64,000 nucleotides of DNA, taken from NCBI GenBank assembly GCA_964016885.1, contig OZ024742.1:8370001-8434000 (forward strand), written 5' to 3'. The notes under the pieces were generated by a model, which saw nothing but the letters and a program-made list of their open reading frames with translations, did not search any database and was not told the DNA's origin. Every line of letters begins with the position of its first letter. Position 1 is the first letter of the stretch. The stretch comes from Eledone cirrhosa. Its lineage: Eukaryota. The position numbers were made by a program, and so were the translations under genes. This document shows positions 3,001 through 57,340 of the stretch, in pieces.

Positions 3001-6000
3001 GTGTAGTGTGGTGTAGTGTGGTGTAGTAGTGTGGTGTAGTAGTGTGGTGTTGTATGGTGTAGTGTGGTGTAGTAGTGTGGTGTAGTAGTGTGGTGTAGTG
3101 TGGTGTAGTAGTGTGGTGTAGTAGTGTGGTGTAGTGTGGTGTAGTATGGTGTAGTAGTGTGGTGTAGTAGTGTGGTGCAGTAGTGTGGTGTAGTGTGGTG
3201 TAGTAGTGTGGTGTACTGTGGTGTAGTATGGTGTAGTAGTGTGGTGTAGTATGGTGTAGTGTGGTGTAGTGTGGTGTAGTAGTGTGGTGTAGTAGTGTGG
3301 TGTAGTATGGTGTAGTGTGGTGTAGTGTGGTGTAGTAGTGTGGTGTAGTAGTGTGGTGTAGTGTGGTGTAGTAGTGTGGTGTAGTATGGTGTAGTGTGGT
3401 GTAGTACGGTGTAGTGTGGTGTAGTAGTGTGGTGTAGTGTGGTGTAGTAGTGTGGTGTATTATGGCGTAGTGTGGTGTAGTAGTGTGGTGTGGTGTAGTA
3501 GTGGTGTGTAGTATGGTGTAGTGTGGTGTAGTAGTGTGGTGTAGTATGGTGTAGTGTGGTGTAATAGGGTGGTGTAGCATGGTGTAGTGTGGTGTAGTAG
3601 TGTGGTGTATTATGGTGTAGTGTGGTGTAGTAGTGGTGTGTAGTATGGTGTAGTGTGGTGTAGTAGTGTGGTGTAGTATGGTGTAGTGTGGTGTAGTAGT
3701 GTGGTGTGGTGTAGTAGTGGTGTGTAGTATGGTGTAGTGTGGTGTAGTAGTGTGGTGTAGTATGGTGTAGTGTGGTGTAGTAGTGTGGTGTAGTATGGTG
3801 TAGTATGGTGTAGTAGTGTGGTGTAGCATGGTGTAGTGTGGTGTAGTATGGTGTAGTGTGGTGTAGTAGTGGTGTGTAGTATGGTGTAGTGTGGTGTAGT
3901 AGTGTGGTGTAGTATGGTGTAGTGTGGTGTAGTATGGTGTAGTGTGGTGTAGTATGGTGTAGTGTGGTGTAGTAGTGTGGTGTAGTATGGTGTAGTGTGG
4001 TGTAGTATGGTGTAGTGTGGTGTAGTAGTGTGGTGTAGTATGGTGTAGTAGTGTGGTGTAGTAGTGTGGTGTAGTATGGTGTAGTGTGGTGTAGTATGGT
4101 GGAGTGTGGTGTAATATGGTGTAGTGTGGTGTAGTAGTGTGGTGTAGTATGGTGTAGTGTGGTGTAGTATGGTGTAGTGTGGTGTAGTATGGTGTAGTGC
4201 GGTGTAGTAGTGTGGTGTAGTAGTGTGGTGTAGTATGGTGTAGTGTGGTGTAGTATGGTGTAGTGTGGTGTAGTAGTGTGGTGTAGCATGGTGTAGTGTG
4301 GTGTAGTATGGTGTAGTGTGGTGTAGTGTGGTGTAGTAGTGTGGTGTAGTATGGTGTAGTGTGGTGTAGTGTGGTGTAGTAGTGTGGTGTAGTATGGTGT
4401 AGTGTGGTGTAGTATGGTGTAGTGTGGTGTAGTAGTGTGGTGTAGTATGGTGTAGTAGTGCGGTGTAGTATGGTGTAGTGTGGTGTAGTAGTGTGGTGCG
4501 GTATGGTGTAGTGTGGTTTAGTAGTGTGGTGTAGTATGGTGCAGTGTGGTGTAGTATGGTGTAGTGTGGTGTAGTAGTGTGGTGTAGTATGGTGTAGTGT
4601 GGTGTAGTATGATGTAGTGTGGTGTAGTATGGTGTAGTGTGGTGTAGTAGTGTGGTGTAGTATGGTGTAGTGTGGTGTAGTATGGTGTAGTGTGGTGTAG
4701 TATGGTGTAGTGTGGTGTAGTAGTGTGGTGTAGTAGTGTGGTGTAGTATGGTGTAGTGTGGTGTAGTATGGTGTAGTGTGGTGTAGTAGTGTGGTGTAGC
4801 ATGGTGTAGTGTGGTGTAGTATGGTGTAGTGTGGTGTAGTGTGGTGTAGTAGTGTGGTGTAGTATGGTGTAGTAGTGTGGTGTAGTAGTGTGGTGTAGTA
4901 TGGTGTAGTGTGGTGTAGTATGGTGTAGTGTGGTGTAGTATGGTGTAGTGTGGTGTAGTAGTGTGGTGTAGTATGGTGTAGTGTGGTGTAGTATGGTGTA
5001 GTGTGGTGTAGTATGGTGTAGTGTGGTGTAGTAGTGTGGTGTAGTAGTGTGGTGTAGTATGGTGTAGTGTGGTGTAGTATGGTGTAGTGTGGTGTAGTAG
5101 TGTGGTGTAGCATGGTGTAGTGTGGTGTAGTATGGTGTAGTGTGGTGTAGTGTGGTGTAGTAGTGTGGTGTAGTATGGTGTAGTGTGGTGTAGTGTGGTG
5201 TAGTAGTGTGGTGTAGTATGGTGTATTGTGGTGTAGTATGGTGTAGTGTGGTGTAGTAGTGTGGTGTAGTATGGTGTAGTAGTGCGGTGTAGTATGGTGT
5301 AGTGTGGTGTAGTAGTGTGGTGCGGTATGGTGTAGTGTGGTTTAGTAGTGTGGTGTAGTATGGTGCAGTGTGGTGTAGTATGGTGTAGTGTGGTGTAGTA
5401 GTGTGGTGTAGTATGGTGTAGTGTGGTGTAGTATGATGTAGTGTGGTGTAGTAGTGTGGTGTGGTATGGTGTAGTGTGGTGTAGTAGTGTGGTGTAGTAT
5501 GGTGCAGTGTGGTGTAGTATGGTGTAGTGTGGTGTAGTAGTGTGGTGTAGTATGATGTAGTGTGGTGTAGTAGTTTGGTGTAGTATGGTGTAGTGTGGTG
5601 TAGTAGTGTGGTGTTGTATGGTGTAGTGTGGTGTAGTAGTGTGGTGTAGTAGTGTGGTGTAGTGTGGTGTAGTAGTGTGGTGTTGTATGGTGTAGTGTGG
5701 TGTAGTAGTGTGGTGTAGTAGTGTGGTGTAGTGTGGTGTAGTAGTGTGGTGTAGTAGTGTGGTGTAGTAGTGTGGTGTAGTAGTGTGGTGTAGTGTGGTG
5801 TAGTAGTGTGGTGTAGTAGTGTGGTGTAGTGTGGTGTAGTAGTGTGGTGTAGTAGTGTGGTGTAGTGTGGTGTAGTGTGGTGTAGTGTGGTGTAGTAGTG
5901 TGGTGTAGTAGTGTGGTGTAGTGTGGTGTAGTAGTGTGGTGTAGTGTGGTGTAGTATGGTGTAGTAGTGTGGTGTAGTATGGTGTAGTGTGGTGTAGTGT

Positions 6001-9000
6001 GGTGTAGTGTGGTGTAGTAGTGTGGTGTAGTAGTATGGTGTAGTGTGGTGTAGTAGTATGGTGTAGTAGTGTGGTGTAGTAGTATGGTGTAGTGTGGGGT
6101 AGTAGTGTGGTGTAGTATGGTGTAGTAGTGTGGTGTAGTAGTGTGGTGTAGTAGTGTGGTGTAGTAGTGTGGTGTAGTAGTGTGGTGTAGTAGTATGGTG
6201 TAGTGTGGTGTAGTAGTATGGTGTAGTATGGTGTAGTGTGGTGTAGTAGTGTGGTGTAGTAGCGTGGTGTAGTGTGGTGTAGTAGTGTGGTGTAGTAGTG
6301 TGGTGTAGTATGGTGTAGTGTGGTGTAGTATGGTGTAGTGTGGTGTAGTAGTGTGGTGTAGTATGGTGTAGTAGTGTGGTGTAATAGTGTGGTGTAGTAT
6401 GGTGTAGTGTGGTGTAGTATGGTGAAGTAGTGTGGTGTAGTATGGTGTAGTGTGGTGTTGTACTGTGGTGTAGTAGTATGGTGTAGTGTGGTGTAGTAGT
6501 GTGGTGTAGTAGTATGGTGTAGTGTGGTGTAGTAGTGTGGTGTAGTAGTGTGGTGTAGTATGGTGTAGTATGGTGCAGTGTGGTGTAGTATGGTGTAGTG
6601 TGGTGTAGTGTGGTGTAGTAGTATGGTGTAGTGTGGTGTAGTAGTATGGTGTAGTATGGTGTAGTAGTGTGGTGCAGTAGTGTGGTGTAGTAGTGTGGTG
6701 TAGTATGGTGTAGTGTGGTGTAGTGTGGTGTAGTAGTGTGGTGTAGTAGTATGGTGTAGTGTGGTGTAGTAGTGTGGTGTAGTATGGTGTAGTGTGGTGT
6801 AGTATGGTGTAGTGTGGTGTAGTAGTGTGGTGTAGTAGTATGGTGTAGTGTGGTGTAGTAGTGTGGTGTAGTATGGTGTAGTGTGGTGTAGTAGTGTGGT
6901 GTAGTAGTATGGTGTAGTGTGGTGTAGTAGTGTGGTGTAGTGTGGTGTAGTAGTGTGGTGTAGTAGTGTGGTATAGTATGGTGTAGTGTGGTGTAGTGTG
7001 GTGTAGTAGTGTGGTGTAGTAGTGTGGTGTAGTATGGTGTAGTGTGGTGTAGTAGTGTGGTGTAGTAGTATGGTGTAGTGTGGTGTAGTAGTGTGGTGTA
7101 GTATGGTGTAGTGTGGTGTAGTAGTGTGGTGTAGTAGTATGGTGTAGTGTGGTGTAGTAGTGTGGTGTAGTGTGGTGTAGTAGTGTGGAGTAGTAGTGTG
7201 GTGTAGTATGGTGTAGTGTGGTGTAGTGTGGTGTAGTAGTGTGGTGTAGTAGTGTGGTGTAGTATGGTGTAGTGTGGTGTAGTAGTGTGGTGTAGCAGTG
7301 TGGTGTAGTATGGTGTAGTATGGTGCAGTGTGGTGTAGTATGGTGTAGTGTGGTGTAGTGTGGTGTAGTAGTATGGTGTAGTGTGGTGTAGTAGTATGGT
7401 GTAGTATGGTGTAGTGTGGTGTAGTGTGGTGTAGTAGTGTGGTGTAGTATGGTGTAGTGTGGTGTAGCAGTGTGGTGTAGTATGGTGTAGTGTGGTGTAG
7501 TAGTGTAGTGTAGTAGTGTGGTGTAGTAGTGTGGTGTAGTATGGTGTAGTAAGGTTGCAGTGTGGTGTAGTATGGTGTAGTGTGGTGTAGTAGTATGGTG
7601 TAGTGTGGTGTAGTAGTATGGTGTAGTATGGTGTAGTGTGGTGTAGTAGTGTGGTGTAGTAGTATGGTGTAGTGTGGTGTAGTAGTGTGGTGTAGTATGG
7701 TGTAGTGTGGTGTAGTGTGGTGTAGTAGTGTGGTGTAGTAGTGTGGTGTAGTATGGTGTAGTGTGGTGTAGCAGTGTGGTGTAGTATGGTTTAGTGTGGT
7801 GTAGTAGTGTGGTGTAGCAGTGTGGTGTAGTATGGTGTAGTAGTGTGGTGTAGTAGTGTGGTGTAGTAGTGTGGTGTAGTAGTGTGGTGTAGTGTGGTGT
7901 AGTAGTATGGTGTAGTGTGGTGTAGTAGTATGGTGTAGTGTGGTGTAGTAGTATGGTGTAGTATGGTGTAGTGTGGTGTAGTAGTGTGGTTTAGTAGTAT
8001 GGTGTAGTGTGGTGTAGTAGTGTGGTGTAGTATGGTGTAGTGTGGTGTAGTAGTGTGGTGTAGCATCGTGTAGTGTGGTGTAGTAGTGTGGTGTATTATG
8101 GTGTAGTGTGGTGTAGTAGTGTGGTGTGGTGTAGTAGTGGTGTGTAGTATGGTGTAGTGTGGTGTAGTAGTGTGGTGTAGTATGGTGTAGTGTGGTGTAG
8201 TAGTGTGGTGTAGTATGGTGTAGTGTGGTGTAGTAGTGTGGTGTAGCATGGTGTAGTGTGGTGTAGTATGGTGTAGTGTGGTGTAGTAGTGGTGTGTAGT
8301 ATGGTGTAGTGTGGTATAGTAGTGTGGTGTAGTATGGTGTAGTGTGGTGTAGTATGGTGTAGTGTGGTGTAGTATGGTGTAGTGTGGTGTAGTAGTGTGG
8401 TGTAGTATGGTGTAGTGTGGTGTAGTATGGTGTAGTGTGGTGTAGTAGTGTGGTGTAGCATGGTGTAGTAGTGTGGTGTAGTAGTGTGGTGTAGTATGGT
8501 GTAGTGTGGTGTAGTATGGTGTAGTGTGGTGTAGTATGGTGTAGTGTGGTGTAGTGTGGTGTAGTATGGTGTAGTGTGGTGTAGTATGGTGTAGTGCGGT
8601 GTAGTATGGTGTAGTGTGGTGTAGTAGTGTGGTGTAGTAGTGTGGTGTAGTATGGTGTAGTGTGGTGTAGTATGGTGTAGTGTGGTGTAGTAGTGTGGTG
8701 TAGCATGGTGTAGTGTGGTGTAGTATGGTGTAGTGTTGTGTAGTGTGGTGTAGTAGTGTGGTGTAGTGTGGTGTAGTGTGGTGTAGTAGTGTGGTGTAGT
8801 ATGGTGTAGTGTGGTGTAGTATGGTGTAGTGTGGTGTAGTAGTGTGGTGTAGTATGGTGCAGTAGTGCGGTGTAGTATGGTGTAGTGTGGTGTAGTAGTG
8901 TGGTGCGGTATGGTGTAGTGTGGTTTAGTAGTGTGGTGTAGTATGGTGCAGTGTGGTGTAGTATGGTGTAGTGTGGTGTAGTAGTGTGGTGTAGTATGGT

Positions 9001-12000
9001 GTAGTGAGGTGTAGTATGATGTAGTGTGGTGTAGTAGTGTGGTGTGGTATGGTGTAGTGTGGTGTAGTAGTGTGGTGTAGTATGGTGCAGTGTGGTGTAG
9101 TATGGTGTAGTGTGGTGTAGTAGTGTGGTGTAGTATGATATAGTGTGGTGTAGTAGTGTGGTGTAGTATGGTGTAGTGTGGTGTAGTAGTGTGGTGTAGT
9201 ATGGTGTAGTGTGGTGTAATATGGTGTAGTGTGGTGTAGTAGTGTGGTGTAGTATGGTGTAGTGTGGTGTAGTAGTGTGGTGTAGTAGTGGTGTGTAGTA
9301 TGGTGTAGTACGGTGTAGTGTGGTGTAATAGTGTGGTGTAGTATTGTGTAGTAGTGTGGTGTAGTGTGGTGTAGTAGTGTGGTGTAGTAGTGTTTTGTAG
9401 TAGTGTGGTGTAGTGTGGTGTAGTAGTGTGGTGTAGTAGTGTGGTGTAGTGTGGTGTAGTAGTGTGGTGTAGTAGTGTGGTGTTGTATGGTGTAGTGTGG
9501 TGTAGTAGTGTGGTGTAGTAGTGTGGTGTAGTGTGGTGTAGTAGTGTGGTGTAGTAGTGTGGTGTTGTATGGTGTAGTGTGGTGTAGTAGTGTGGTGTAG
9601 TAGTGTGGTGTAGTGTGGTGTAGTAGTGTGGTGTAGTAGTGTGGTGTAGTAGTGTGGTGTAGTAGTGTGGTGTAGTGTGGTGTAGTAGTGTGGTGTAGTA
9701 GTGTGGTGTAGTGTGGTGTAGTAGTGTGGTGTAGTAGTGTGGTGTAGTAGTGTGGTGTAGTGTGGTGTAGTGTGGTGTAGTAGTGTGGTGTAGTAGTGTG
9801 CTGTAGTGTGGTGTAGTAGTGTGGTGTAGTGTGGTGTAGTATGGTGTAGTAGTGTGGTGTAGTATGGTGTAGTGTGGTGTAGTGTGGTGTAGTGTGGTGT
9901 AGTAGTGTGGTGTAGTAGTATGGTGTAGTGTGGTGTAGTAGTATGGTGTAGTAGTGTGGTGTAGTAGTATGGTGTAGTGTGGGGTAGTAGTGTGGTGTAG
10001 TATGGTGTAGTAGTGTGGTGTAGTAGTGTGGTGTAGTAGTGTGGTGTAGTATGGTGTAGTGTGGTGTAGTATGGTGTAGTGTGGTGTAGTAGTGTGGTGT
10101 AGTATGGTGTAGTAGTGTGGTGTAATAGTGTGGTGTAGTATGGTGTAGTGTGGTGTAGTATGGTGAAGTAGTGTGGTGTAGTATGGTGTAGTGTGGTGTA
10201 GTACTGTGGTGTAGTAGTATGGTGTAGTGTGGTGTAGTAGTGTGGTGTAGTAGTATGGTGTAGTGTGGTGTAGTAGTGTGGTGTAGTAGTGTGGTGTAGT
10301 ATGGTGTAGTATGGTGCAGTGTGGTGTAGTATGGTGTAGTGTGGTGTAGTATGGTGTAGTAGTATGGTGTAGTGTGGTGTAGTAGTATGGTGTAGTATGG
10401 TGTAGTAGTGTGGTGTAGTAGTGTGGTGTAGTAGTGTGGTGTAGTATGGTGTAGTGTGGTGTAGTATGGTGTAGTAGTGTGGTGTAGTAGTATGGTGTAG
10501 TGTGGTGTAGTAGTGTGGTGTAGTATGGTGTAGTGTGGTGTAGTATGGTGTAGTGTGGTGTAGTAGTGTGGTGTAGTAGTATGGTGTAGTGTGGTGTAGT
10601 AGTGTGGTGTAGTATGGTGTAGTGTGGTGTAGTAGTGTGGTGTAGTAGTGTGGTGTAGTAGTATGGTGTAGTGTGGTGTAGTAGTGTGGTGTAGTGTGGT
10701 GTAGTAGTGTGGTGTAGTAGTGTGGTGTAGTATGGTGTAGTGTGGTGTATTGTGGTGTAGTAGTGTGGTGTAGTAGTGTGGTGTAGTATGGTGTAGTGTG
10801 GTGTAGTAGTGTGGTGTAGTAGTATGGTGTAGTGTGGTGTAGTAGTGTGGTGTAGTATGGTGTAGTATGGTGTAGTATGGTGCAGTGTGGTGTAGTATGG
10901 TGTAGTGTGGTGTAGTGTGGTGTAGTAGTATGGTGTAGTGTGGTGTAGTAGTATGGTGTAGTATGGTGTAGTGTGGTGTAGTGTGGTGTAGTAGTGTGGT
11001 GTAGTAGTGTGGTGTAGTATGGTGTAGTGTGGTGTAGCAGTGTGGTGTAGTATGGTGTAGTGTGGTGTAGTAGTGTAGTGTAGTAGTGTGGTGTAGTAGT
11101 GTGGTGTAGTATGGTGTAGTAAGGTTGCAGTGTGGTGTAGTATGGTGTAGTGTGGTGTAGTAGTATGGTGTAGTGTGGTGTAGTAGTATGGTGTAGTATG
11201 GTGTAGTGTGGTGTAGTAGTGTGGTGTAGTAGTATGGTGTAGTGTGGTGTAGTGGTGTGGTGTAGTATGGTGTAGTGTGGTGTAGTGTGGTGTAGTAGTG
11301 TGGTGTAGTAGTGTGGTGTAGTATGGTGTAGTGTGGTGTAGCAGTGTGGTGTAGTATGGTTTAGTGTGGTGTAGTAGTGTGGTGTAGCAGTGTGGTGTAG
11401 TATGGTGTAGTAGTGTGGTGTAGTAGTGTGGTGTAGTAGTGTGGTGTAGTAGTGTGGTGTAGTGTGGTGTAGTAGTATGGTGTAGTGTGGTGTAGTAGTA
11501 TGGTGTAGTATGGTGTAGTATGGTGTAGTAGTATGGTGTAGTATGGTGTAGTGTGGTGTAGTAGTGTGGTTTAGTAGTATGGTGTAGTGTGGTGTAGTAG
11601 TGTGGTGTAGTATGGTGTAGTGTGGTGTAGTAGTGTGGTGTAGCATCGTGTAGTGTGGTGTAGTAGTGTGGTGTATTATGGTGTAGTGTGGTGTAGTAGT
11701 GTGGTGTGGTGTAGTAGTGGTGTGTAGTATGGTGTAGTGTGGTGTAGTAGTGTGGTGTAGTATGGTGTAGTGTGGTGTAGTAGTGTGGTGTGGTGTAGTA
11801 GTGGTGTGTAGTATGGTGTAGTGTGGTGTAGTAGTGTGGTGTAGTATGGTGTAGTGTGGTGTAGTAGTGTGGTGTAGCATGGTGTAGTGTGGTGTAGTAT
11901 GGTGTAGTGTGGTGTAGTAGTGGTGTGTAGTATGGTGTAGTGTGGTATAGTAGTGTGGTGTAGTATGGTGTAGTGTGGTGTAGTATGGTGTAGTGTGGTG

Positions 12001-15000
12001 TAGTGTGGTGTAGTATGGTGTAGTGTGGTGTAGTATGGTGTAGTGTGGTGTAGTATGGTGTAGTGTGGTGTAGTAGTGTGGTGTAGTAGTGTGGTGTAGT
12101 ATGGTGTAGTGTGGTGTAGTATGGTGTAGTGTGGTGTAGTAGTGTGGTGTAGCATGGTGTAGTGTGGTGTAGTATGGTGTAGTGTTGTGTAGTGTGGTGT
12201 AGTAGTGTGGTGTAGTGTGGTGTAGTGTGGTGTAGTAGTGTGGTGTAGTATGGTGTAGTGTGGTGTAGTATGGTGTAGTGTGGTGTAGTAGTGTGGTGTA
12301 GTATGGTGTAGTAGTGCGGTGTAGTATGGTGTAGTGTGGTGTAGTAGTGTGGTGCGGTATGGTGTAGTGTGGTTTAGTAGTGTGGTGTAGTATGGTGCAG
12401 TGTGGTGTAGTATGGTGTAGTGTGGTGTAGTAGTGTGGTGTAGTATGGTGTAGTGTGGTGTAGTATGATGTAGTGTGGTGTAGTAGTGTGGTGTGGTATG
12501 GTGTAGTGTGGTGTAGTAGTGTGGTGTAGTATGGTGCAGTGTGGTGTAGTATGGTGTAGTGTGGTGTAGTAGTGTGGTGTAGTATGATGTAGTGTGGTGT
12601 AGTAGTGTGGTGTAGTATGGTGTAGTGTGGTGTAGTAGTGTGGTGTAGTATGGTGTAGTGTGGTGTAATATGGTGTAGTGTGGTGTAGTAGTGTGGTGTA
12701 GTATGGTGTAGTGTGGTGTGGTAGTGTGGTGTAGTAGTGGTGTGTAGTATGGTGTAGTACGGTGTAGTGTGGTGTAATAGTGTGGTGTAGTATTGTGTAG
12801 TAGTGTGGTGTAGTATGGTGTAGTAGTGTGGTGTAGTAGTGTGGTGTAGTGTGGTGTAGTAGTGTGGTGTAGTAGTGTGGTGTAGTGTGGTGTAGTAGTG
12901 TGGTGTAGTGTGGTGTAGTAGTGTGGTGTAGTAGTGTGGTGTAGTAGTGTGGTGTAGTGTGGTGTAGTGTGGCGTAGTAGTGTGGTGTAGTGTGGTGTAG
13001 TAGTGTGGTGTTGTATGGTGTAGTGTGGTGTAGTAGTGTTGTGTAGTAGTGTGGTGTAGTGTGGTGTAGTAGTGTGGTGTAGTAGTGTGGTGTAGTGTGG
13101 TGTAGTAGTGTGGTGTAGTAGTGTGGTGTAGTAGTGTGGTGTAGTGTGGTGTAGTAGTGTGGTGTAGTAGTGTGGTGTAGTAGTGTGGTGTAGTGTGGTG
13201 TAGTAGTGTGGTGTAGTGTGGTGTAGTAGTGTGGTGTAGTAGTGTGGTGTAGTAGTGTGGTGTAGTGTGGTGTAGTAGTGTGGTGTAGTAGTGTGGTGTA
13301 GTTTGGTGTAGTAGTGTGGTGTAGTAGTGTGGTGTAGTGTGGTGTAGTAGTGTGGTGTAGTGTGGTGTAGTAGTGTGGTGTAGTAGTGTGGTGTAGTAGT
13401 GTGGTGTAGTGTTGTGCAGTAGTGTGGTGTAGTGTGGTGTAGTAGTGTGGTGTAGTAGTGTGGTGTAGTAGTGTGGTGTAGTGTGGTGTAGTAGTGTGGT
13501 GTAGTGTGGTGTAGTAGTGTGGTGTAGTAGTGTGGTGTAGTAGTGTGGTGTAGTGTGGTGTAGTAGTGTGGTGTAGTAGTGTGGTGTTGTATGGTGTAGT
13601 GTGGTGTAGTAGTGTGGTGTAGTAGTGTGGTGTAGTGTGGTGTAGTAGTGTGGTGTAGTAGTGTGGTGTAGTAGTGTGGTGTAGTAGTGTGGTGTAGTGT
13701 GGTGTAGTAGTGTGGTGTAGTAGTGTGGTGTAGTGTGGTGTAGTAGTGTTGTGTAGTAGTGTGGTGTAGTAGTGTGGTGTAGTGTGGTGTAGTGTGGTGT
13801 AGTAGTGTGGTGTAGTAGTGTGGTGTAGTGTGGTGTAGTAGTGTGGTGTAGTGTGGTGTAGTATGGTGTAGTAGTGTGGTGTAGTATGGTGTAGTGTGGT
13901 GTAGTGTGGTGTAGTGTGGTGTAGTAGTGTGGTGTAGTAGTATGGTGTAGTGTGGTGTAGTAGTATGGTGTAGTAGTGTGGTGTAGTAGTATGGTGTAGT
14001 GTGGGGTAGTAGTGTGGTGTAGTATGGTGTAGTAGTGTGGTGTAGTAGTGTGGTGTAGTGTGGTGTAGTAGTGTGGTGTAGTAGTGTGGTGTAGTATGGT
14101 GTAGTGTGGTGTAGTATGGTGTAGTGTGGTGTAGTAGTGTGGTGTAGTATGGTGTAGTAGTGTGGTGTAATAGTGTGGTGTAGTATGGTGTAGTGTGGTG
14201 TAGTATGGTGAATTAGTGTGGTGTAGTATGGTGTAGTGTGGTGTAGTACTGTGGTGTAGTAGTATGGTGTAGTGTGGTGTAGTAGTGTGGTGTAGTAGTA
14301 TGGTGTAGTGTGGTGTAGTAGTGTGGTGTAGTAGTGTGGTGTAGTATGGTGTAGTATGGTGCAGTGTGGTGTAGTATGGTGTAGTGTGGTGTAGTGTGGT
14401 GTAGTAGTATGGTGTAGTGTGGTGTAGTAGTATGGTGTAGTATGGTGTAGTAGTGTGGTGTAGTAGTGTGGTGTAGTAGTGTGGTGTAGTATGGTGTAGT
14501 GTGGTGTAGTATGGTGTAGTAGTGTGGTGTAGTAGTATGGTGTATTGTGGTGTAGTAGTGTGGTGTAGTATGGTGTAGTGTGGTGTAGTATGGTGTAGTG
14601 TGGTGTAGTAATGTGGTGTAGTAGTATGGTGTAGTGTGGTGTAGTAGTGTGGTGTAGTATGGTGTAGTGTGGTGTAGTAGTGTGGTGTAGTAGTATGGTG
14701 TAGTGTGGTGTAGTAGTGTGGTGTAGTGTGGTGTAGTAGTGTGGTGTAGTAGTGTGGTGTAGTATGGTGTAGTGTGGTGTAGTGTGGTGTAGTAGTGTGG
14801 TGTAGTAGTGTGGTGTAGTATGGTGTAGTGTGGTGTAGTAGTGTGGTGTAGTAGTATGGTGTAGTGTGGTGTAGTAGTGTGGTGTAGTATGGTGTAGTGT
14901 GGTGTAGTAGTGTGGTGTAGTAGTATGGTGTAGTGTGGTGTAGTAGTGTGGTGTAGTGTGGTGTAGTAGTGTGGTGTAGTAGTGTGGTGTAGTATGGTGT

Positions 15001-15975
15001 AGTGTGGTGTAGTGTGGTGTAGTAGTGTGGTGTAGTAGTGTGGTGTAGTATGGTGTAGTGTGGTGTAGTAGTCTGGTGTAGCAGTGTGGGTTAGTATGGT
15101 GTAGTATGGTGCAGTGTGGTGTAGTATGGTGTAGTGTGGTGTAGTGTGGTGTAGTAGTATGGTGTAGTGTGGTGTAGTAGTATGGTGTAGTATGGTGTAG
15201 TGTGGTGTAGTGTGGTGTAGTAGTGTGGTGTAGTAGTGTGGTGTAGTATGGTGTAGTGTGGTGTAGCAGTGTGGTGTAGTATGGTGTAGTGTGGTGTAGT
15301 AGTGTGGTGTAGTAGTGTGGTGTAGTAGTGTGGTGTAGTATGGTGTAGTATGGTGTAGTAGTGTGGTGTAGTAGTGTGGTGTAGTGTGGTGTAGTAGTGT
15401 GGTGTAGTATGGTGTAGTGTGGTGTAGTAGTATGGTGTAGTGTGGTGTAGTAGTATGGTGTAGTATGGTGTAGTGTGGTGTAGTAGTGTGGTGTAGTAGT
15501 ATGGTGTAGTGTGGTGTAGTAGTGTGGTGTAGTATGGTGTAGTGTGGTGTAGTGTGTTGTAGTAGTGTGGTGTAGTAGTGTGGTGTAGTATGGTGTAGTG
15601 TGGTGTAGCAGTGTGGTGTAGTATGGTTTAGTGTGGTGTAGTAGTGTGGTGTAGCAGTGTGGTGTAGTATGGTGTAGTGTGGTGTAGTAGTGTGGTGTAG
15701 TAGTGTGGTGTAGTAGTGTGGTGTAGTATGGTGTAGTGTGGTGTAGTAGTGTGGTGTAGTATGGTGTAGTGTGGTGTAGTAGTGTGGTGTAGTATGGTGT
15801 AGTGTGGTGTAGTAGTGTGGTGTAGTATGGTGTAGTGTGGTGTAGTATGGTGTAATGTGGTGTAGTAGTGTGGTGTAGTATGGTGTAGTAGTGTGGTGTA
15901 GTATGGTGTAGTATGGTGTAGTAGTATGGTGTAGTAGTATGGTGTAGTATGGTGTAGTAGTATGGTGTAGTATGT
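1..15975. repeat. Complex tandem satellite built from GTAGTGTGGT / GTAGTATGGT (10 bp) and GTAGTAGTGTGGT (13 bp) units
   Basis: Continuous from window start to about 15975. The + strand is almost devoid of C. Confidence 0.99.
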
Positions 15976-16063
15976 TGTTGTGGGTAGAATGAAATCCTGC
16001 CTGTAGTTAGACAGAGAGGGAAGGAGGGATTGTTGAAAATGTAGAAAAGCCGTATGACAATGG

Positions 16064-16289: not shown

Positions 16290-16760
16290 CAGAGACGTAA
16301 CGGGAACATAACAGAGGCAGTACAAACAAAGGTTTATTAGTTAAACGCTTTTGAGAGTGTGTGAGGGGGGGGGGCCTTTCGGGCATAATCCCTTCTTCAG
16401 GAGATAAGTGGGTGGAAAGAGAGTTCCGAGGGTGTGTGGGGGAGTGGTGGTGAGACATTTAGACAAAAAGGGGGGGGGGGTGTAAGGGGTACAAATAAAA
16501 ATAAAAATAAACATGAAGATAAAGAAGTGGTGGAAGGGTGTGGGCTTGTAGGGGTGGTGGCGTGTGGAGTGGGGAGAGGGAGGCGGGGTGTCCGAGCGGG
16601 GAGGGCTGAAGGTGGTGTTTGTTTTATGTGTGTAGGTGTACGTGTGTGTGTGTGTGTATGTGAATGTGAGAGTTGGGGGAAGAACGTGCTTCCATGTTCA
16701 GGAAAAGGTGTGTGTGTGTGGGGTGGGGGTGGGGTGGGGGTGTAGAACGGTGCGTGTGTA
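16290..16760 (-). mobile_element. 3' end (pLTR) fragment of the Neptune-type PLE with degenerate HHR
   Basis: Aligns by eye to 53430-53940. Minus strand reads CTGAAGA-AGGGATTATGCCC-GAAA at about 16377-16400, followed by AATAAA. Confidence 0.85.
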
Positions 16761-16761
16761 A

Positions 16762-17053
16762 CACACTCGATATGCTAATTAGGCTACTCAGCCGTTAATA
16801 TGCATAAGGAAAGTATATACTTTCAGACGTTCGATCATCTGGCAGGAACGTATACGGTGCCGACGATAGCTAACAAGCTTGAAACTAGTACAGCGTTCCT
16901 TTGTCAGTGTTGACCAAAAGGGCAATGTGCATGTATTTATATATATACATACTACTGTACGTCTGTATACATATATGTATGTACGTATACATACTTATAT
17001 TTAAGTAACAGCCGTACTAAGAGTGCGATATGAAATTTCGTTTCATTTATTCC

Positions 17054-17058
<5 letters not shown>
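16762..17058 (+). mobile_element. Family B non-autonomous HHR element, internally deleted copy
   Basis: Homologous to 17422-17959. HHR at 16855-16895 has a CCGACGA core. Ends in (TA)n. Confidence 0.85.
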
Positions 17059-17118
<60 letters not shown>

Positions 17119-17421
17119 GCCGTATTTTGACTAAAGAAATTAAAGAAATTATTTAGCCTGGGGTTAAGAACGCAAGGAGAAATGTACGTCAATACTCATC
17201 TTTTTCCATTTCTCCGAGGGTCCTTAGTCAAAATTCGGCGATAGCTTACATTTATAATAATTTCAAATCCGCTCACTCTTTAGAAAATATTCTTACATAT
17301 ATATATATATATTCAAAACAACAAACAGCGAAGGACGCGTTCCGGACTTGTCCGACAGACAACCTTTTCCCCCACCCCGGAAAAAACCCCAGTTGATGGA
17401 TGTGAATCCGAAATATATAGG

Positions 17422-17784
17422 GACGTACTAAGAGTGAGAAATGAAATTTCGTTTCATTCTATTCCAATTTATCGTTTTCGGTGCGCCTGGCCGACTGAAC
17501 TCACTCGATATGCAAATTAGGCTGCTCAGCCGTTAATTTTCATAAGGAAAGTATATACTTTCGAACGTTCAACCAACAGGCAGAAGGGTATACGGTGCTG
17601 ACGATAGCTAACAAGCTTGAAACTAGTACATCGTTCCTGTGTCAGTGTTGAACAAAAAGGTGACGTGGTGCCTTAACACCGTACGGCATAAATCAGGCTC
17701 TCCGTTTGTTTACAAACGAGCAAAGCGAATATTATAATAAATATTCGCTAAACTGATACGTAGATATCTATATGTGTGCCTGTA

Positions 17785-17848
<64 letters not shown>

Positions 17849-17954
17849 TGCTACTGTACTTCTGTATACATATATGTATGTACGTATACATACATACTTA
17901 CATTTAAGTAAGTGACGTACTGAGAGTGAGAAATGAAATTTCGTTTCATTCTAT

Positions 17955-17959
<5 letters not shown>
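17422..17959 (+). mobile_element. Family B HHR element, one monomer plus a 46-bp terminal direct repeat
   Basis: GACGTACT(A/G)AGAGTGAGAAATGAAATTTCGTTTCATTCTATTCCAA occurs at 17422 and 17914. Internal HHR present. (TA)n at the 3' end. Confidence 0.88.
17593..17633 (+). ncRNA. Minimal type I hammerhead ribozyme (family B)
   Basis: CGGTG-CTGACGA-TAGCT AACA AGCTT-GAAA-CTAG-TA-CATCG. Stem I is CGGTG/CATCG, stem III is palindromic, cleavage site GUA. Confidence 0.85.
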
Positions 17960-18203: not shown

Positions 18204-18757
18204 AATTCGAACACCATCAACATTCAACATCCACCATAGACTCTAATACATTAACATATTTGCTTTAACTGCAGTATTCATTCATTTATATATGCATAAT
18301 AGCTTTGCTTGTCTCCTTCTCATGTATATCACTAACGCAGTTGCACTCTCCAAACGCTTGCAAATGAATTGTTAATGCACTCTTCCTTTCTCAAAACTAC
18401 TTCCTCAATGCCTCTTTAATATTTGGACTATTTCCTTGTTTTAACTGTTGCATGTATTCCACTCCGTATCTGTGTGTTTCTAAATATATTGTTAATAACT
18501 CCCTCTGGTCGAGCAATCTTTGAAGTGTGGGGACTGCTGGAAAGCTTCCATTACTCATACTTCTCGCCTCCTTCACCACCTCTTCTACGGCTTCGATATA
18601 AATACCCCCCTCCGCCTCCGTGGTATTTTCTTTGGGGTTATAAGAGGCTTAGCTCTGTTTCTCGACCGTTATATCGCGTGACTATCTCCCCCTCCGCCTG
18701 TTGGGATTCTTTCTCACGTCGTGTAGACGCGTTCTTGGGACTAGTAAAATGAGGTAT

Positions 18758-18845
18758 CCTCTTGATAAGTCGGCAGACCTCGCAGGGACTCTATATCTTT
18801 ATGATGTATTGTTTTTGTTTATGCCACGAAACTACGCAGTCGAGG
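18758..18845 (+). ncRNA. Hammerhead-like motif with U3-A8 variant core
   Basis: CCTC-TTGATAA-GTCGGCA...TGCCAC-GAAA-CTACGCAG-TC-GAGG. Stem I is CCTC/GAGG, cleavage site GUC. Confidence 0.65.
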
Positions 18846-18939
18846 AATCTAGGAGCAGTTTAGGTATGATACATTTTATTACTAATTATATCTAAATGTT
18901 TCTTCTCTCTTCATAATATATATATATATATATATATAC

Positions 18940-20266: not shown

Positions 20267-20870
20267 GAAAAAGTGAAACGAAATTTCATTTCCCACTCTT
20301 AGTACGGCTGTTACTTAAATATAAGTATGTACACGTACATACATATATGTATACAGACGTACAGTAGTATGTATATATATATACATATATGCACACATAT
20401 ATATATGTACATATGGATTCACCGAACATTTATTATAATGCTCGGTGTGTTTGTAAACAAACATCCCGTATTAAGCCGTAGTGTCCAGCAACCATCGTTG
20501 CTCGTTTGTTCAACACTGACAAAGGAACGCTGTACTAGTTTCAAGCTTATTAGCTATCGTCAGCAACGTATACCTTCCTGCCACATTGTTGAACGTATAT
20601 ACTTACCTTATGCATACTAACGGCTGAGTAGCCCAATTTGCATATCGAGTTGGCTAATCGGCCGGGTGCACCGAAATGGATAAACGGAGAAAATGAAACT
20701 AAATTTCATTTCTTACTCTTAGTACGGCTGTTACTTAAATATAAGTATGTACACGTACGTACATACATATATGTATGCAGACGTACAGTAGTATGTATAT
20801 ATATATATATATATATACATGCACACATAATACCGAACATTTATTATAATATATATATATATATATATTT

Positions 20871-22290: not shown

Positions 22291-22336
22291 GAGAGAATTG
22301 TGTCCGCGCATCGCCTGGAGACTTACCTGAGAATAG

Positions 22337-22418
22337 ACTCCCTGATGACGTAATGAATTCTCGATGGTTATATTACGTAACTATCTTTATCCCATTACAG
22401 AAACTAATTAGTTGGAGT
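22337..22418 (+). ncRNA. Type I hammerhead ribozyme, copy 1
   Basis: ACTCC-CTGATGA-(C)GTAATG...CATTAC(A)-GAAA-CTAATTAG-TT-GGAGT. Confidence 0.85.
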
Positions 22419-22868
22419 GAAAATTTTAGTAAGTAAGTTAATTTTAAATTTTCTTATTTTACGTCTTTCATATTATTGTTCTGCATCCTCCTGCATTGAA
22501 CCACCTAGGTACTATGACATAACTTATGTATTTGCTAGCATTAGTGTACATCTGTACGCATATGTTGGTAGATATTCTAAATTCTCTATATGTATCTCCA
22601 AATTATTTATTTGTTGAGCAAACCTGCCAAAACCACTACTAATTCATTGGTGTGGTAGTAGGCTTCTGTCATCTTACCAACCCACTCCTTCCGACTAGCC
22701 TCAGTGTCACGTGATTGATTCTTTAGAATCTGCCATTTGACCAGAGACAGCGAACTTTTTCAGTGCATGGAATCCAGTCCCCGCTAGCTGTTCCATCCAC
22801 CGAATTATTATTATTTTTATATGGGTCCCCAGTGTCCGCGCATTGCCTGGAGACTTAGCTGAGAATAG

Positions 22869-22950
22869 ACTCCCTGATGACGTAATGAATTCTCGATGGT
22901 TATATTACGTAACTATCTTTATCCCATTACAGAAACTAATTAGTTGGAGT
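22869..22950 (+). ncRNA. Type I hammerhead ribozyme, copy 2
   Basis: Same motif as 22337-22418, 532 nt downstream. Confidence 0.85.
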
Positions 22951-23008
22951 GAAAATTTTAGTAAGTAAGTTAATTTTTAATTTTTTTAAAATTTTCTTAT
23001 TTTACGTC

Positions 23009-23055: not shown

Positions 23056-23057
<2 letters not shown>

Positions 23058-23113
23058 AACGAGTAGGACCCCGACGGGTGAACTTCAGCTGTTTCGACGG
23101 CTAATTCTGGACC
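23056..23113 (-). mobile_element. Family C fragment
   Basis: GACCCCGACGG...GTTTCGACGGCTAATTCTGGA between (TA)n tracts. Confidence 0.8.
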
Positions 23114-24810: not shown

Positions 24811-24813
<3 letters not shown>

Positions 24814-25010
24814 CAAAGGAATTGTGGTAAGGAACCAGATGGACCATAACGCACCAGAGTACCCAATACTTAGGGTAGTAGAGTGGAAAATAGGAAAAAG
24901 TATGACACCGACGGCAGAGCTCAAGCCGTTTCGACGGCTATTTCTGGACTATCCAGAAATAGCCGTCGAAACGGCTTGAGCTCTGCCGTCGGGGTCATAC
25001 TTTTTCCTAT
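24811..25010 (-). mobile_element. Family C fold-back element (half hammerhead)
   Basis: Palindrome apex CTGGA-CTA-TCCAG near 24950, with GAAACGGC...GCCGTC-GGGGTC. (TA)n on both sides. Confidence 0.9.
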
Positions 25011-25019
25011 ATATATATA

Positions 25020-25160
25020 AAGGAACCAAATAAATATATATATTTTTAAAAAAAATAAGACTCCAGTTGCATTTTCGATTTCATCTTTTTTTCTTTATAC
25101 TTTCACTCGTGTAGGACACAGGTTATTTTTCATTTTGTAAAAAAAACCTCACTTTCTAAT
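25020..25160 (+). mobile_element. Copy of the post-cleavage-site tail of the 29397-29650 element
   Basis: Near-identical to 29501-29641. Confidence 0.85.
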
Positions 25161-28996: not shown

Positions 28997-29351
28997 ACAA
29001 TATATTAATAAATGGAAACTATATTTATAAAGCCATATTTATTTTATTATACATATTTCAAGGGCAACCAAGGTAAATTATGGTGCGCTTTCATCAGATA
29101 AAATACAGATTTGGTTTATAAATAAATATTGACATACCCGGAAAAAAAGACAACCTTAACGGTTGGAGCTTCCTGGATATACATATTTCAAGGTTGCCCT
29201 TGAAATATGTATAATAAAATAAATATGGTTTTATAAATATAGTTTCCATTTATTAATATATTCTGTATTTACTCCACTAAATTGTTGAGTCCTTTATATC
29301 AGTTATAACATTTTTAAGCTTGTTGAATCCCAACAAATTAAATACAACCTC

Positions 29352-29355
<4 letters not shown>
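28997..29355. mobile_element. Inverted HHR element related to 18940-19385
   Basis: Canonical HHR at 29042-29103 (-): TTTTAT-CTGATGA...GAAA-TATGTA-TA-ATAAAA. The second arm restarts inside stem II near 29190. Confidence 0.85.
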
Positions 29356-29396
<41 letters not shown>

Positions 29397-29398
<2 letters not shown>

Positions 29399-29650
29399 GA
29401 GTTGAGATGGAGGGTCTATGGTTTTTCTCACAGATGTCAGAAAAACCACAGATCCTCCATCTCAACTCTACTTTTGAAAAGCAGAACTGCGAAACCGGTA
29501 AAGGAACCAAATAAATATATATATTTAAACAAAAAATAAGACTCCAGTTGCATTTTCGATTTCATCTTTTTTTCTTTATACTTTCACTCGTGTAGGACAC
29601 AGGTTATTTTTCATTTTGTAAAAAAAACCTCACTTTCTAATACGTTTCTA
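29397..29650 (+). mobile_element. Hairpin plus U3-A8 variant HHR element
   Basis: 32-bp-arm hairpin at 29397-29470. CTT-TTGAAAA-GCAG AA CTGC-GAAA-CCGG-TA-AAG at 29471-29503, followed by AATAAA. Confidence 0.75.
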
Positions 29651-29700
29651 TATATATATATATAGATATATATATATATAGATATATATATATATATATA

Positions 29701-29870
29701 TAACGAAGAAGTTGTGGTTAGGAACCAGTTGGACCATAACACACCAGAGTACTCAATACTTAGGGTAGTAGAGTGGGTAATAGGGAAACGTATGACCCCG
29801 ACGGCAGAGCTCAAGACGTTTCGACGGCTATTTCTGGAGTCCAGAAATAGCCATCGAGGTCATACATTTT

Positions 29871-29925: not shown

Positions 29926-29928
<3 letters not shown>

Positions 29929-30099
29929 AAAATGTATGACCTCGACGGCAGGGCACAAGCCGTTTCGATGGCTATTTCTGGACTCCAGAAATAGCCGTCG
30001 AAACGACTTGAGCTCTGCCGTCGGGGTCTTATATTTTCCTATTACCCACTCTAGTACCCTAAGTATTGAGTACTCTTGTGCGTTATGGTCCATCTGGTT

Positions 30100-30104
<5 letters not shown>
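29926..30104 (+). mobile_element. Family C fold-back element
   Basis: Apex CTGGA-C-TCCAG near 29983. Confidence 0.88.
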
Positions 30105-33386: not shown

Positions 33387-33713
<327 letters not shown>

Positions 33714-35395: not shown

Positions 35396-35787
35396 CTGTG
35401 TGTATATACATATGCCTGTGTGTATATATACATATAGTGTCTAGATATGTTTGGATATACATATATCTGTGTGTATATACATATTTATGTGTGTAGATAC
35501 ATATTTCTGTATGTATATACATATTTTTGTGTGTGTATATATATATTTCTGTGTGTATATAAATATTTCTATGTGTATATAAATATTTCTGTGCGTAGAT
35601 ACATATTTCTGTATATATATATACATATTTCTGTATATATATATATATATATTCCAGAATTAGCCGTCGAAACGGCTTGAGCTCAGCCGTCGGGGACTTA
35701 CTGGTTCCTATTACCCACTCTACTACCCCAAGTATTGAGTACTTTGGTGCGTTATGGTCCACCTGGTTCCTTACCACATTTCCTTCG

Positions 35788-35850
<63 letters not shown>

Positions 35851-38579: not shown

Positions 38580-39331
38580 GCGTTCAATCCTGGTAGTGTT
38601 TGTAATATGAAAATGTAGATTTCAAGCGATGGTTACAGTATAACGATCGCTCTATTCTGTTATTTAATAAAATATTTTTGGATTTCATAATACAAAATAA
38701 TTCCATATTACACAATTTACAAAATTCCTGTCCGTGGAGGTATGGAGGGGCATTTTAGGTTAAATTGTTGGTTATTTTCGCGCAGCTGCCAAGCCTTGTC
38801 TGCGAGTGTTGTTACATAACGCTGGTTTTCATGTTTTATCGAGTAACAATGTCTATAAAGGCGAGATTTGAAGGAGGTGGCTGTAGAACCTACGTAGTAC
38901 CACTTCTGGCTATCCGATTCGATAGTACATTTGTATATGATGTTGCGTTCAAGACACTGATTGTTCAACGGACACATTCCTGGTTGGACACAGTTACAGT
39001 TATAATTTTGTGTTGTTGTATTGGCATGGATGGGTTGATGAGGTTGCTTAGAAAGGACGGGATGTTGTTTGTTGTTTTGTGATGTTATAGCCGATGTTTT
39101 ACGTGTATTGTTATGTGTTGGAAGGCGTTTATACAACCGTTTTGCGTTAAGCTTTTTTATATGTTGTTCAATATCAGGGGCGGTTGAATATGAAAGTCGA
39201 ATAGTGTTAGGGTTTAAGATTTTATTATATTTATGTGATGTTGGAAAGTGTTTTTTAACTAATCGAAAGAATTGTGAGGGTAGATTGGTTTTAATAGAGT
39301 TGTTATAGACCGAGTTGTACCATATATACTC
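38580..39331 (-). pseudogene. Truncated, frameshifted PLE ORF (RT thumb plus GIY-YIG)
   Basis: ORF track 38717-39136 plus manual translation upstream and downstream. Confidence 0.88.
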
Positions 39332-39339
39332 TTTAAATC

Positions 39340-40200
39340 GCGGTCAGATTTACTGAGCACCTCCGGGATATTCGTCTCGGTGGTAGTTTCCCCATCGCCC
39401 GCCACTTTGGTGCCCGTGGACATTCCGCACACCATCTCACATTCTGTGGCCTACTCCAATGCCACGGAACATCCGCCAATCTCCTAAGAGTTGAACAACG
39501 AACCATCTTCATCTTACAGACCCACACCCCCCGGCCTGAACTCCCCACCCTTATTCCTTTAGCCTTCGACCACCACCCTCCTCCCACACATATCCCCCAC
39601 TAACACCACTAACACACCCCTCCTTTTCACCGCCCACCCCACAACTAACAATACTAACACCTCTACTCCACCCCACACCCGACCACCCTTCCCCAACTAA
39701 CATACTAACATCCCTCTCTTCTTCTCCTCCCCCTCCTTATCACACGCACACACCCACCGGCACATATATATACGCGCTCACACTAAACACACACCCTACT
39801 ACCACCACTAACCCTCACCCCCACACATCCACCCCACCACCTCGCAACTAACATCACTAACACCCCCTGACCACAAGCACAAGAACACACACACCCAGTT
39901 ACACCACCCACCCTACACGCATCTAACATCACTAACATCACTAACACCCCTCAACCCTACGCACACGTACACACACACCCTCTTACACCACCCACTCTAC
40001 ACCTCCTACCACCACTGACCCCCCACTAACACCCGCATTCAACCCTTTCTCCACCTCCTGTATACTAACACCCACTAACACCACCTTCACCAAACACACA
40101 TACCAGTACACTACACTCCCTCCATCGGCCCCACACCCTTCTCTCCCCGCTCCACCCACACCCTTTCTCCAACACTCACTCATCCCACTAACACCTCTAC
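39340..40200 (+). mobile_element. Fragment of the Neptune-type PLE (end of endonuclease and 3' UTR)
   Basis: Reverse complement of about 54400-55100 (RFTEHLRDIRLGGSFPIARHFG...EQRTIFILQTHTP). Confidence 0.92.
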
Positions 40201-40890: not shown

Positions 40891-40993
40891 TGAAGAGGGT
40901 CGGGACACCGACGGCTGAGCTCCGGTCGTTTTGACAGCTATTGAATACTATGGTGCATTATGGTCCACCTGGTATCTTACCACACTCTCTTTG

Positions 40994-40996
<3 letters not shown>
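40891..40996. mobile_element. Family C-related rearranged fragment
   Basis: Same layout as 33559-33660. Confidence 0.8.
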
Positions 40997-41433: not shown

Positions 41434-41879
41434 TATGTATACGTACATACATATATGTGTACAGACGCACAGTAGTATGTATATATATATATACATGCAT
41501 ACATATATATATGTACGTATGGGTTTACCGAACATTTATTATAATGTTCAGTTTGTTTGTAAACAAACAGATCGAATTACGCCGTACAGTGCTCGGAAAC
41601 CATCGTCGCCCTTTTGTTCAACACTGACACAGGAACTATGTACTAGTTTCAAGCTTATTAGCTATCGTCAGCATTGTATACCTTTCTGTCATACTTATAT
41701 TTAGGTATCAGCCGTACTATAAGTGAGAAATGAAATTTCGTTTCATTCTTTTCCATTTATCGTTTCGGTATGCCCGGCGACTAACTCACTCGATATGCAA
41801 ATTAGGCTGCTCAGCCGTTAATATGCATAAGGAAAGTATATACTTTCAGACATTCAATCATCTGACAGAAAGGTATACG
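41428..41879. mobile_element. Family B element made of two oppositely oriented segments
   Basis: 41428-41691 is minus orientation with HHR at 41636-41676. 41692-41879 is plus orientation. Confidence 0.85.
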
Positions 41880-41902
41880 TTCTGTATAATCATGTCCATC
41901 AC

Positions 41903-44171: not shown

Positions 44172-44372
44172 GAAAAAAAGGTTCAAGGCCCCGACGGCAG
44201 ACCTAAAGTCATTTTGACGGCTATTTCTGGACGTCCAGAAATCGCCGTTGAAGCGGCTTGTGCTTTGCTGTCGGGTTCTGACTCTTTTCCTATTACACAC
44301 TTTACTACCCAAAGTATCGACTACTCTGGTGCGTTATGGGCCACCTGGTTCCTTACCACACTTCCTTCGTTA
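44172..44372 (+). mobile_element. Family C fold-back element, diverged
   Basis: Apex CTGGAC-GTCCAG near 44232. Ends CCTTCGTTA(TA)n. Confidence 0.85.
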
Positions 44373-51085: not shown

Positions 51086-51088
<3 letters not shown>

Positions 51089-51276
51089 AACCAGTAAGAC
51101 CCCGACGGCTGAGCTCAAGCCGTTTCGACGGCTAATTCTGTTCAGAATTAGCCGTCGAAACGGCTTGAGCTCAGCCGTCGGGGTCTTACTGGTTCCTATT
51201 ACCCACTCTACTACCTCAAGTATTGAGTACTTTGGTGCGTTATGGTCCACCTGGTTCCTTACCACATTTCCTTCGT

Positions 51277-51769: not shown

Positions 51770-51968
51770 AAGCAAAGAAAGTGTGGTAAGAAACCAGGTG
51801 GACCATAATGCACCAGAGTACTCGATACTTAGGATAATAGGAAAATAATCAGGACCCCGACGGCTGAGCTCCGGCCGTTTCGACAGCTAAATCCGAACGC
51901 GGATGTGTTCGGATTTAGCTGTCGAAACGGCCGGAGCTCAGCCGTCGGGATCTTGACGCTTTTCCTAT
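51770..51968 (-). mobile_element. Family C subfamily fold-back element with a different apex sequence
   Basis: Apex GCTAAATCCGAAC GCGGATGT GTTCGGATTTAGC near 51901. Confidence 0.88.
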
Positions 51969-51997: not shown

Positions 51998-52698
51998 TAT
52001 AAGTATGTACACGTACATACATACATGTATACAGACGTACAGTAGTATGTATATATATATATACATACATGCACACACATATATATGTACGTATGGATTC
52101 ACCAAACATTTATTATAATGCTCGGTGTGTTTGTAAACAAACATCCCGTATTAAGCCGTAGTGTCTAGCAACCATCGCTGCTCGCCTGGTCAACACCGAC
52201 AAAGGAACGCTGTACTAGTTTCAAGCTTATTAGCTATCGTCAGCAACGTATACCTTCCTGCCAGATTGTTGAACGTATATACTTACCTTATGCATATTAA
52301 CGGCTGAATAGCCCAATTTGCATATCGAGTGAGTTAATCGGCCGGGTGTACCGAAAACGATAAACGGTATACGATGGCAGGAAGGTATACGATGCTGACG
52401 ATAGCTAATAAGCTTGAAACTAGTACAGCGTTCCTTTATCGGTGTTGAACAGGCGAGCAGCGATGGTTGCTAGATACTACGGCTTAATACGGGATGTTTG
52501 TTTACAAACACACCGAGCATTATAATAAATGTTCGGTGAATCCATACGTACATATATATATGTGTGCATGTATGTATATATATATATACATACTACTGTA
52601 CGTCTCTTTACATATATGTATGTACGTGTACATACTTATATTTAAGTAACAGCCGTACTAAGAGTGGGAAATGAAATTTTGTTTCATTTTTTCCGTTT
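51998..52698. mobile_element. Family B inverted (fold-back) element
   Basis: Left arm is minus with HHR at 52208-52248. Right arm is plus with HHR at 52390-52430. Junction near 52365. Confidence 0.9.
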
Positions 52699-53154
52699 AT
52701 ATATATATATAGAGAGAGAGAAAGTTTGACTATATGTTGGTTGTATACCACTACTATGAGAGATGGTGGCAGGAGATATGAAGAAAAAACACACACAGAT
52801 ACTTCTAAATTGTCAACAGAAGCAAGACATAAGCTGATCACAACACCAACAACACTACCAAAATAATTGTAGAGGTCAAATGTACTTAACAATAGCAAAC
52901 ACAAACACTACAGGGAGCCTCACCCCAGAAAGAATTCTATAGACTTCCGACTGAGGAATGCTCTCAGAACTGACCAATGGGAAGTTTGACACTTTTTTTG
53001 TTATTTTGCTCCTTTACCACCTTGCCCCTTCTACCACTTTATCAATTTTTTAAGCTAACTCCAACAATAACAACACTTAGAATGAGGAATGTTCTAACAA
53101 CTGACCAATGAGAGGAGAAGAGGCCCTTTGACACTGAAATTCGTTTGTTTGAAT

Positions 53155-53378: not shown

Positions 53379-53409
<31 letters not shown>

Positions 53410-53493
53410 AAAAATTGAACAGGGACAGAATCGAGAGGCAGTACGACAAATGTTTATTAGATTCACGCTCAGGAGAGTGGGGGGTAGGTGGAG

Positions 53494-54880: not shown

Positions 54881-57340
<2,460 letters not shown>

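Follow-up and report, generated by a model that had tools for sequence, protein, structure and literature searches.

The 64,000-nucleotide stretch of Eledone cirrhosa DNA analysed here (the window) holds, at 29471–29503 on the forward strand, a minimal type I hammerhead motif with a U3-A8 core, which lies inside a 250-bp element flanked by (TA)n. A second, partial copy of this element (25020–25160, +) is devoid of the core and starts 0–2 nt from the predicted cut. In the preliminary description of this DNA, that start had been taken for a genomic fossil of a self-cleaved RNA. Weighing the evidence, we lean, without strong conviction, to the view that the element is a fragment of a Penelope-like element (PLE), that intact RNA served as template for its long copy and that a TA overlap mediated the joining of the shorter one to (TA)n.

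Anatomy of the motif and of its host element

The motif begins with the 5′ strand of stem I (29471–29473), which comprises 3 bp only, followed by core positions 3–9 (TTGAAAA, 29474–29480, with U3 at 29474 and A8 at 29479) and by stem II (29481–29490), which is closed by a G10.1-C11.1 pair, consists of 3–4 bp of about −0.4 kcal/mol and carries no bulged base after A9. GAA (29491–29493), the palindromic helix III ACCGGT (29494–29499) and A17 (29500) come next, and cleavage is predicted between 29500 and 29501, at a GUA triplet. The 3′ strand of stem I (29501–29503) and a 148-nt 3′ tail follow, the region 3′ of the predicted cut being 29501–29648 (all features on the + strand). Compared with the core N3-UGAN-N8-A plus GAAA, positions 3 and 8 form a Watson-Crick pair (U3-A8) and the remaining core positions are canonical. 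The G10.1-C11.1 pair is present in a stem II that is weak, and helix III is a perfect 6-nt self-complementary palindrome with the GUA site. Thus, the U3-A8 variant hammerhead that had been picked out earlier (core TTGAAAA, GAAA, CCGG, cut after TA) is confirmed as described. Stem I forms three consecutive pairs (4/8 overall) and is open in the minimum-energy cofold; the consensus is 4–5 bp, and D. virilis has 2 bp.

Helix III is worth −8.3 kcal/mol, as an intermolecular duplex only. A dimer in which stem I is paired as well is less stable than the minimum-energy cofold by 3.4 kcal/mol. The monomer does not adopt a stable hammerhead fold (z = 0.24), and the motif ranks among the weakest hammerheads of the window, given its 3-bp stem I and a stem II of −0.4 kcal/mol. 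An Rfam scan of 29440–29560 returned no hammerhead match, and scanning of the whole window yielded no hammerhead among the best 150 of 166 matches, canonical-core neighbours included, so that the curated models apparently miss these neighbours too. TA repeats and foldbacks did match Rfam models of miRNAs, and a MALAT1 match (E = 2.2) was obtained as well; all of these were dismissed as chance. The core of the motif occurs a single time in the window, even when three mismatches are allowed, and a search of GTDB genomes for exact 26-nt matches to the motif returned none. Two phage records matched by blastn over 35 AT-rich nucleotides were discarded.

The element is bordered on its 5′ side by a (TA)n tract that represents the insertion target (29355–29398) and on its 3′ side by another one (29649–29702). 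At its 5′ end, it carries a foldback (29399–29468, +), whose 30-bp arms (29399–29428 and 29439–29468) show two mismatches and enclose a 10-nt loop. A foldback arm meets the (TA)n array with a 2-nt TA overlap, and the fold of 29395–29530 has a z-score of −10.6. This foldback, which is absent from the preliminary description, may be read as an inverted 5′-truncated piece typical of PLE insertions. PLEs have been described to carry hammerheads in their pseudo-LTRs, to show inverted 5′-truncated pieces and to target microsatellites (PMC8557442; PMC4209133). The element agrees with this architecture: the hammerhead lies near the 3′ end, at a distance of 148 nt from it, in a presumed 3′ pseudo-LTR, and the putative inverted 5′-truncated piece is accompanied by a (TA)n microsatellite on either side. 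The 250 bp contain no ORF, for which they are too short, and have no DNA match to the PLE at 54881–57078. From the architecture, with no ORF linking the family to PLEs, we infer that 29399–29648 is a 3′-end (pseudo-LTR) fragment of a PLE or a non-autonomous derivative. Head-to-tail hammerhead units, as expected for a retrozyme, were not found, the family being represented in the window by two dispersed copies and one core. Nonetheless, the element resembles the metazoan non-LTR retrozymes in that it is short, repetitive and non-coding, carries a type I hammerhead and is related to PLE pseudo-LTRs, whereas it differs from them in the lack of a head-to-tail tandem and in its minimal motif without the canonical helix lengths (PMC7229834; bioRxiv 10.64898/2026.07.22.740005).

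The window as a whole is animal DNA crowded with (TA)n, short foldback elements and PLE fragments. An interrupted Penelope-like ORF with reverse transcriptase (RT) and GIY-YIG parts extends in two frames over 54881–57078 (−) and matches proteins annotated with RT (PF00078) and GIY-YIG (PF01541) domains; the named matches are 40–50% identical and come from fish, echinoderms, molluscs and corals. In a Pfam search, none of three pieces of this protein was matched, and its identity rests on the annotated protein matches. We take its CxxC linker to suggest the Neptune clade. Related 3′ ends were observed at 53407–53913 and 16313–16716 and carry a minimal hammerhead (cut at 53496). By eye, 38717–39343 (−) appears to be a remnant of a second type of GIY-YIG endonuclease, which has no Pfam match and no similarity to the 54881 ORF.

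The U3-A8 variant as such is not new, as it has been published, PLEs included. Natural hammerheads with U3-A8 cores have been reported, with earlier in vitro activity being cited (PMC3088659), and about 1,300 matches to U3-A8 were given for the minimal hammerheads (min-HHRs) of PLEs in Schistosoma mansoni (PMC4209133). The motif at 29471 shows the same 3-8 covariation as the former (PMC3088659); it is of the minimal type and lies within an animal repeat. With the PLE min-HHRs, that is Cercyon of S. mansoni (U3-A8) and the palindromic-helix-III class of flies, rotifers and shrimps, it has in common type I topology, a short helix I, the G10.1-C11.1 pair, the U3-A8 core (Cercyon), a palindromic helix III and the occurrence as dispersed single copies in truncated elements, whereas its stem II has 3–4 bp as compared to 6–8 bp, the bulged base after A9 is missing and stem I has 3 bp (PMC4209133). 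The statement of the preliminary description that positions 3 and 8 covary as a Watson-Crick pair is supported by the cores at 29471 and 18762 as well as by these publications (PMC3088659; PMC4209133), in which the variant had appeared before. The core at 18762 belongs to a second U3-A8 hammerhead candidate (18757–18846, +), a single copy with a 5-bp stem I, a long stem II, a near-palindromic helix III and a GUC site, located ~75 nt before a (TA)n tract. Several families have U4C cores (28857, +; 16860, +; ~32999, −; 62800–62890, +; 57048–57333), a U4A core lies near 31260, and in one hammerhead of the U4C/U4A type the stem II region is unusually long, at 93 nt.

Hammerheads of the window and the role of chance

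A general hammerhead descriptor, which misses the candidate at 18762, found 15 matches with a canonical C3-G8 core in 16001–64000, as compared to a mean of 0.04 in 300 shuffles; both arms of a foldback are counted separately in this number. These data show that the window holds many real minimal hammerheads. Nearly all of these neighbours combine a palindromic helix III with a UA or UC site, and the distance to the 3′ end, which is 148 nt for the motif at 29471, ranges from 40 to 195 nt in the neighbouring families. With the same descriptor, U3-A8 matches arose in 42 of the 300 shuffles, and the motif by itself is thus not significant. A tuned descriptor gave a U3-A8 match in 2/400 shuffled windows and a match with any Watson-Crick core in 3/400. 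However, it rejects every canonical motif and was fitted to the motif at 29471, which makes this test post hoc. The case for the motif therefore rests on its context, i.e. the (TA)n-flanked foldback element, the 148 nt to the 3′ end, the palindromic helix III and the UA site as in the canonical neighbours.

One could argue that the hammerhead is a chance composite: the piece of 141–148 nt would be a TA-inserting element of its own, which abuts unrelated sequence at 29499, and the 3-bp stem I would be accidental. The frequent matches in shuffles scored with the general descriptor, the missing Rfam match, the failure of the monomer to fold as a hammerhead and the fact that the core is known from one copy would all be in line with such an origin. 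On the other hand, only 2/400 shuffles pass the tuned descriptor, and the helix III palindrome, the G10.1-C11.1 pair, the UA site and the 3′ distance of 148 nt are all as in the genuine neighbours. Moreover, no displaced tail from another element is present 3′ of 29650. We consider a chance composite highly improbable and are confident in our judgement that the motif is a true hammerhead.

Further repeats are abundant in the window. Family B comprises about 10 copies (23056–23112, 24813–25007, 29703–29870, 29927–30102, 33560–33659, 35653–35788, 40892–40994, 44185–44370, 51087–51276 and 51773–51965) and seems to keep no more of a hammerhead than its 3′ half. Most of its copies fold back or truncate ~40 nt upstream of the putative site, at the expected loop II; self-priming of the cDNA at stem II could account for this, as could a single foldback that was inherited. 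Family H consists of five copies of a ~370-bp hammerhead-bearing unit (16759–17958, 20267–20791, 41513–41881 and 52002–52700), arranged in partial tandems and inversions; every copy reads through the site, and the family is retrozyme-like. A 138-bp direct repeat (22300–22437 and 22832–22969, 98.6% identical), each unit of which contains a match to the canonical-core descriptor, forms a pseudo-LTR pair around ~400 bp. Positions 1–15978 are occupied by a 16-kb G/T-rich satellite with periods of 10, 23 and 33 bp and a GC skew of ~0.98.

The second copy and its origin

The second copy is separated from the family-B foldback element at 24813–25007 (−) by a (TA)6 spacer (25008–25019), whose final TA corresponds to ribozyme positions 16.1 and 17. 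Upstream of the cut site, the two copies have exactly these 2 nt (TA) in common. Both parts of the earlier observation thus hold: a copy at 25020 starts at the predicted cleavage site, within 0–2 nt, and it does so directly after (TA)n with a 2-nt ambiguity. Over 141 nt, 25018–25158 is 97.9% identical to 29499–29639, the three substitutions being clustered in one T/A run. The 3′ end of the second copy, on which the preliminary description is silent, is ~10 nt shorter than that of the long copy and coincides with a 3-nt overlap with (TA)n. A third copy of the family is absent from the window. Splitting of a once full copy by insertion of family B was rejected, as there is no core half beyond 24813.

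We surveyed 27 copies in the window whose families have a recognisable core; the list was compiled manually from BLAST rows that cover 48 kb. The 5′ start is defined in 16 of them and known as a bound in 7, and 4 are full-core copies with undefined start; family B (~10 copies, no 5′ core) and the full-core copies 22342 and 22874 are not part of the list. A single copy out of the 27, namely the one at 25020, starts at its own predicted site. This corresponds to 1/7 when copies with a defined 5′ end within −60 to +100 are considered, and to none of the 25 copies from other families. None of the ~10 family-B copies begins at the putative site either. Eighteen element/(TA)n junctions could be read by comparison with a longer copy, and 14 of them have TA overlaps of at least 2 nt, although five of these 14 are family-B arms at one position and probably reflect one inherited event. 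In the family of 29399–29648 all three junctions overlap in this manner, and the B35653 junction (register ±1) has an overlap below 2 nt. Among true 5′-truncation junctions, two of five show a TA overlap, the 25020 junction included.

The range in which the second copy could have started (167 nt) contains 8 TA sites (12 TA dinucleotides). The chance of hitting the site is P = 0.018 per copy if ends are uniform and 8–12% if ends fall on TA; over three (TA)n-abutting tries, the values are 0.053 and 19–24%, respectively. The TA-restricted null may overstate chance, since TA overlaps are seen at just two of the five true 5′-truncations. The coincidence of the start with the cleavage site is suggestive and not significant. 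At 15 of 19 scored motifs in the window the site is UA, so that in families that target (TA)n the junction expected from cleavage is also the one expected from TA microhomology. Families with a UC site also occur (for example 18842, 24287 and 53496), and in these a cut would not be mimicked by TA overlap. Separately, a mini-inversion (29178–29213) within a larger foldback has an arm that ends at the predicted cleavage base of the neighbouring family C; it may represent a template switch at a short overlap. We left it out as support because an overlap at the palindrome apex can explain this end.

In the scenario that we prefer, the PLE protein would have reverse transcribed an RNA that was intact across the site, ending in the foldback, which would yield the long copy at 29397. 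The copy at 25020 would be a more truncated sibling, the new end of which was joined to (TA)n via the 2-nt TA overlap. Cleavage by the hammerhead itself would require a dimer held together by the palindromic helix III and would probably be slow or assisted by protein. The dimer mechanism, retrotransposition and microhomology joining are steps that we infer. Since the joining TA also forms the two bases directly 5′ of the cut, agreement of the start with the cleavage site is most likely a coincidence. Templating by intact RNA fits the data reported for a lizard PLE in vitro, where ribozyme mutants still inserted, hammerhead cleavage was dispensable and unprocessed RNA was the dominant template; cleavage required protein, and no RNA-seq reads started or ended at the site (PMC11167929).

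A rival scenario predicts the same letters at the 25020 junction. That is, the U3-A8 ribozyme may have cut RNA in vivo, whereupon the 3′ product was reverse transcribed as far as the new 5′ end and integrated into (TA)n, and the second copy would record the cut. The junction lies within 0–2 nt of the predicted site, which has a P of 0.018 for this copy under the uniform null, and in vitro activity of U3-A8 is stated in PMC3088659, with reference to earlier work. In addition, two compensating changes would be an unlikely product of decay in a young element, whose copies are 98% identical and whose arms differ at 2/30 positions. R2 elements with HDV-like ribozymes offer a precedent, as their junctions follow the ribozyme site (PMC3774820). 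What they share with the 25020 case is the idea that a genomic 5′ junction mirrors a ribozyme cut and is shaped by chance microhomology, but ribozyme and element class are different: the R2 ribozyme resides at the 5′ end and its cleavage was assayed, whereas a cut at 29500/29501 would discard the core. Against a record of cleavage speak the single case (n = 1), the 0/25 copies of other families that start at the site, the long copy of the same family, which spans it, and the TA overlap, which is the usual junction in the window. The weak fold (3-bp stem I, stem II of −0.4 kcal/mol, dimer 3.4 kcal/mol above the minimum) and the poor in vitro cleavage of PLE min-HHRs (PMC4209133) point in the same direction. 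Of the earlier fossil interpretation, the position of the junction at the site remains, while the wider claim is weakened by a single junction, by a 2-nt ambiguity that equals the common TA overlap (14/18) and by the lack of an in-window peak (1/27). We regard a record of cleavage as conceivable, though doubtful. Alternatively, the second copy could have been made at the DNA level with no RNA end involved, either as a local templated copy of 29499–29641 or from a full copy that lost its 5′ part, with (TA)n and internal TA dinucleotides mediating slippage or microhomology repair. TA overlaps at both ends of the copy (2 and 3 nt), the same orientation of two copies that are 4.5 kb apart and differ in one T/A run only, and the lack of a third copy in the window would suit this origin. 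However, distinct flanks and the shorter 3′ end also fit separate retrotransposition, alternative 3′ ends are a feature of PLEs (PMC11167929) that is also seen in family B (30102), and another near-identical pair, family B 35653/51087 (98.5%), is 15 kb apart. A DNA-level origin appears unlikely to us.

Implications for PLE ribozymes

As one more example of a published variant class, the sequence at 29471 matters little. The role of PLE hammerheads has been stated to be unclear (PMC8557442), and in the literature searched, which was mostly open-access and represented in part (including PMC7229834, PMC6765202, PMC6155905 and the bioRxiv retrozyme preprint), we met no description of PLE 5′ ends that accumulate at the site of the hammerhead. 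A tentative idea, to which we give less credence than to its negation, is that the 3′ product of hammerhead cleavage serves PLE reverse transcriptase as an occasional template, giving rise to a class of copies that start exactly at the site. If this were true, plots of 5′ boundaries would provide a DNA-only readout of PLE hammerheads cutting in vivo, weak U3-A8 variants included. It would also bear on the function of PLE ribozymes, given that uncleaved RNA is the main template in vitro. The window shows which control such boundary plots need, namely for TA microhomology that mimics a cut. If 5′ ends were to peak at the site across a genome, this would directly evidence in vivo cleavage during transposition.
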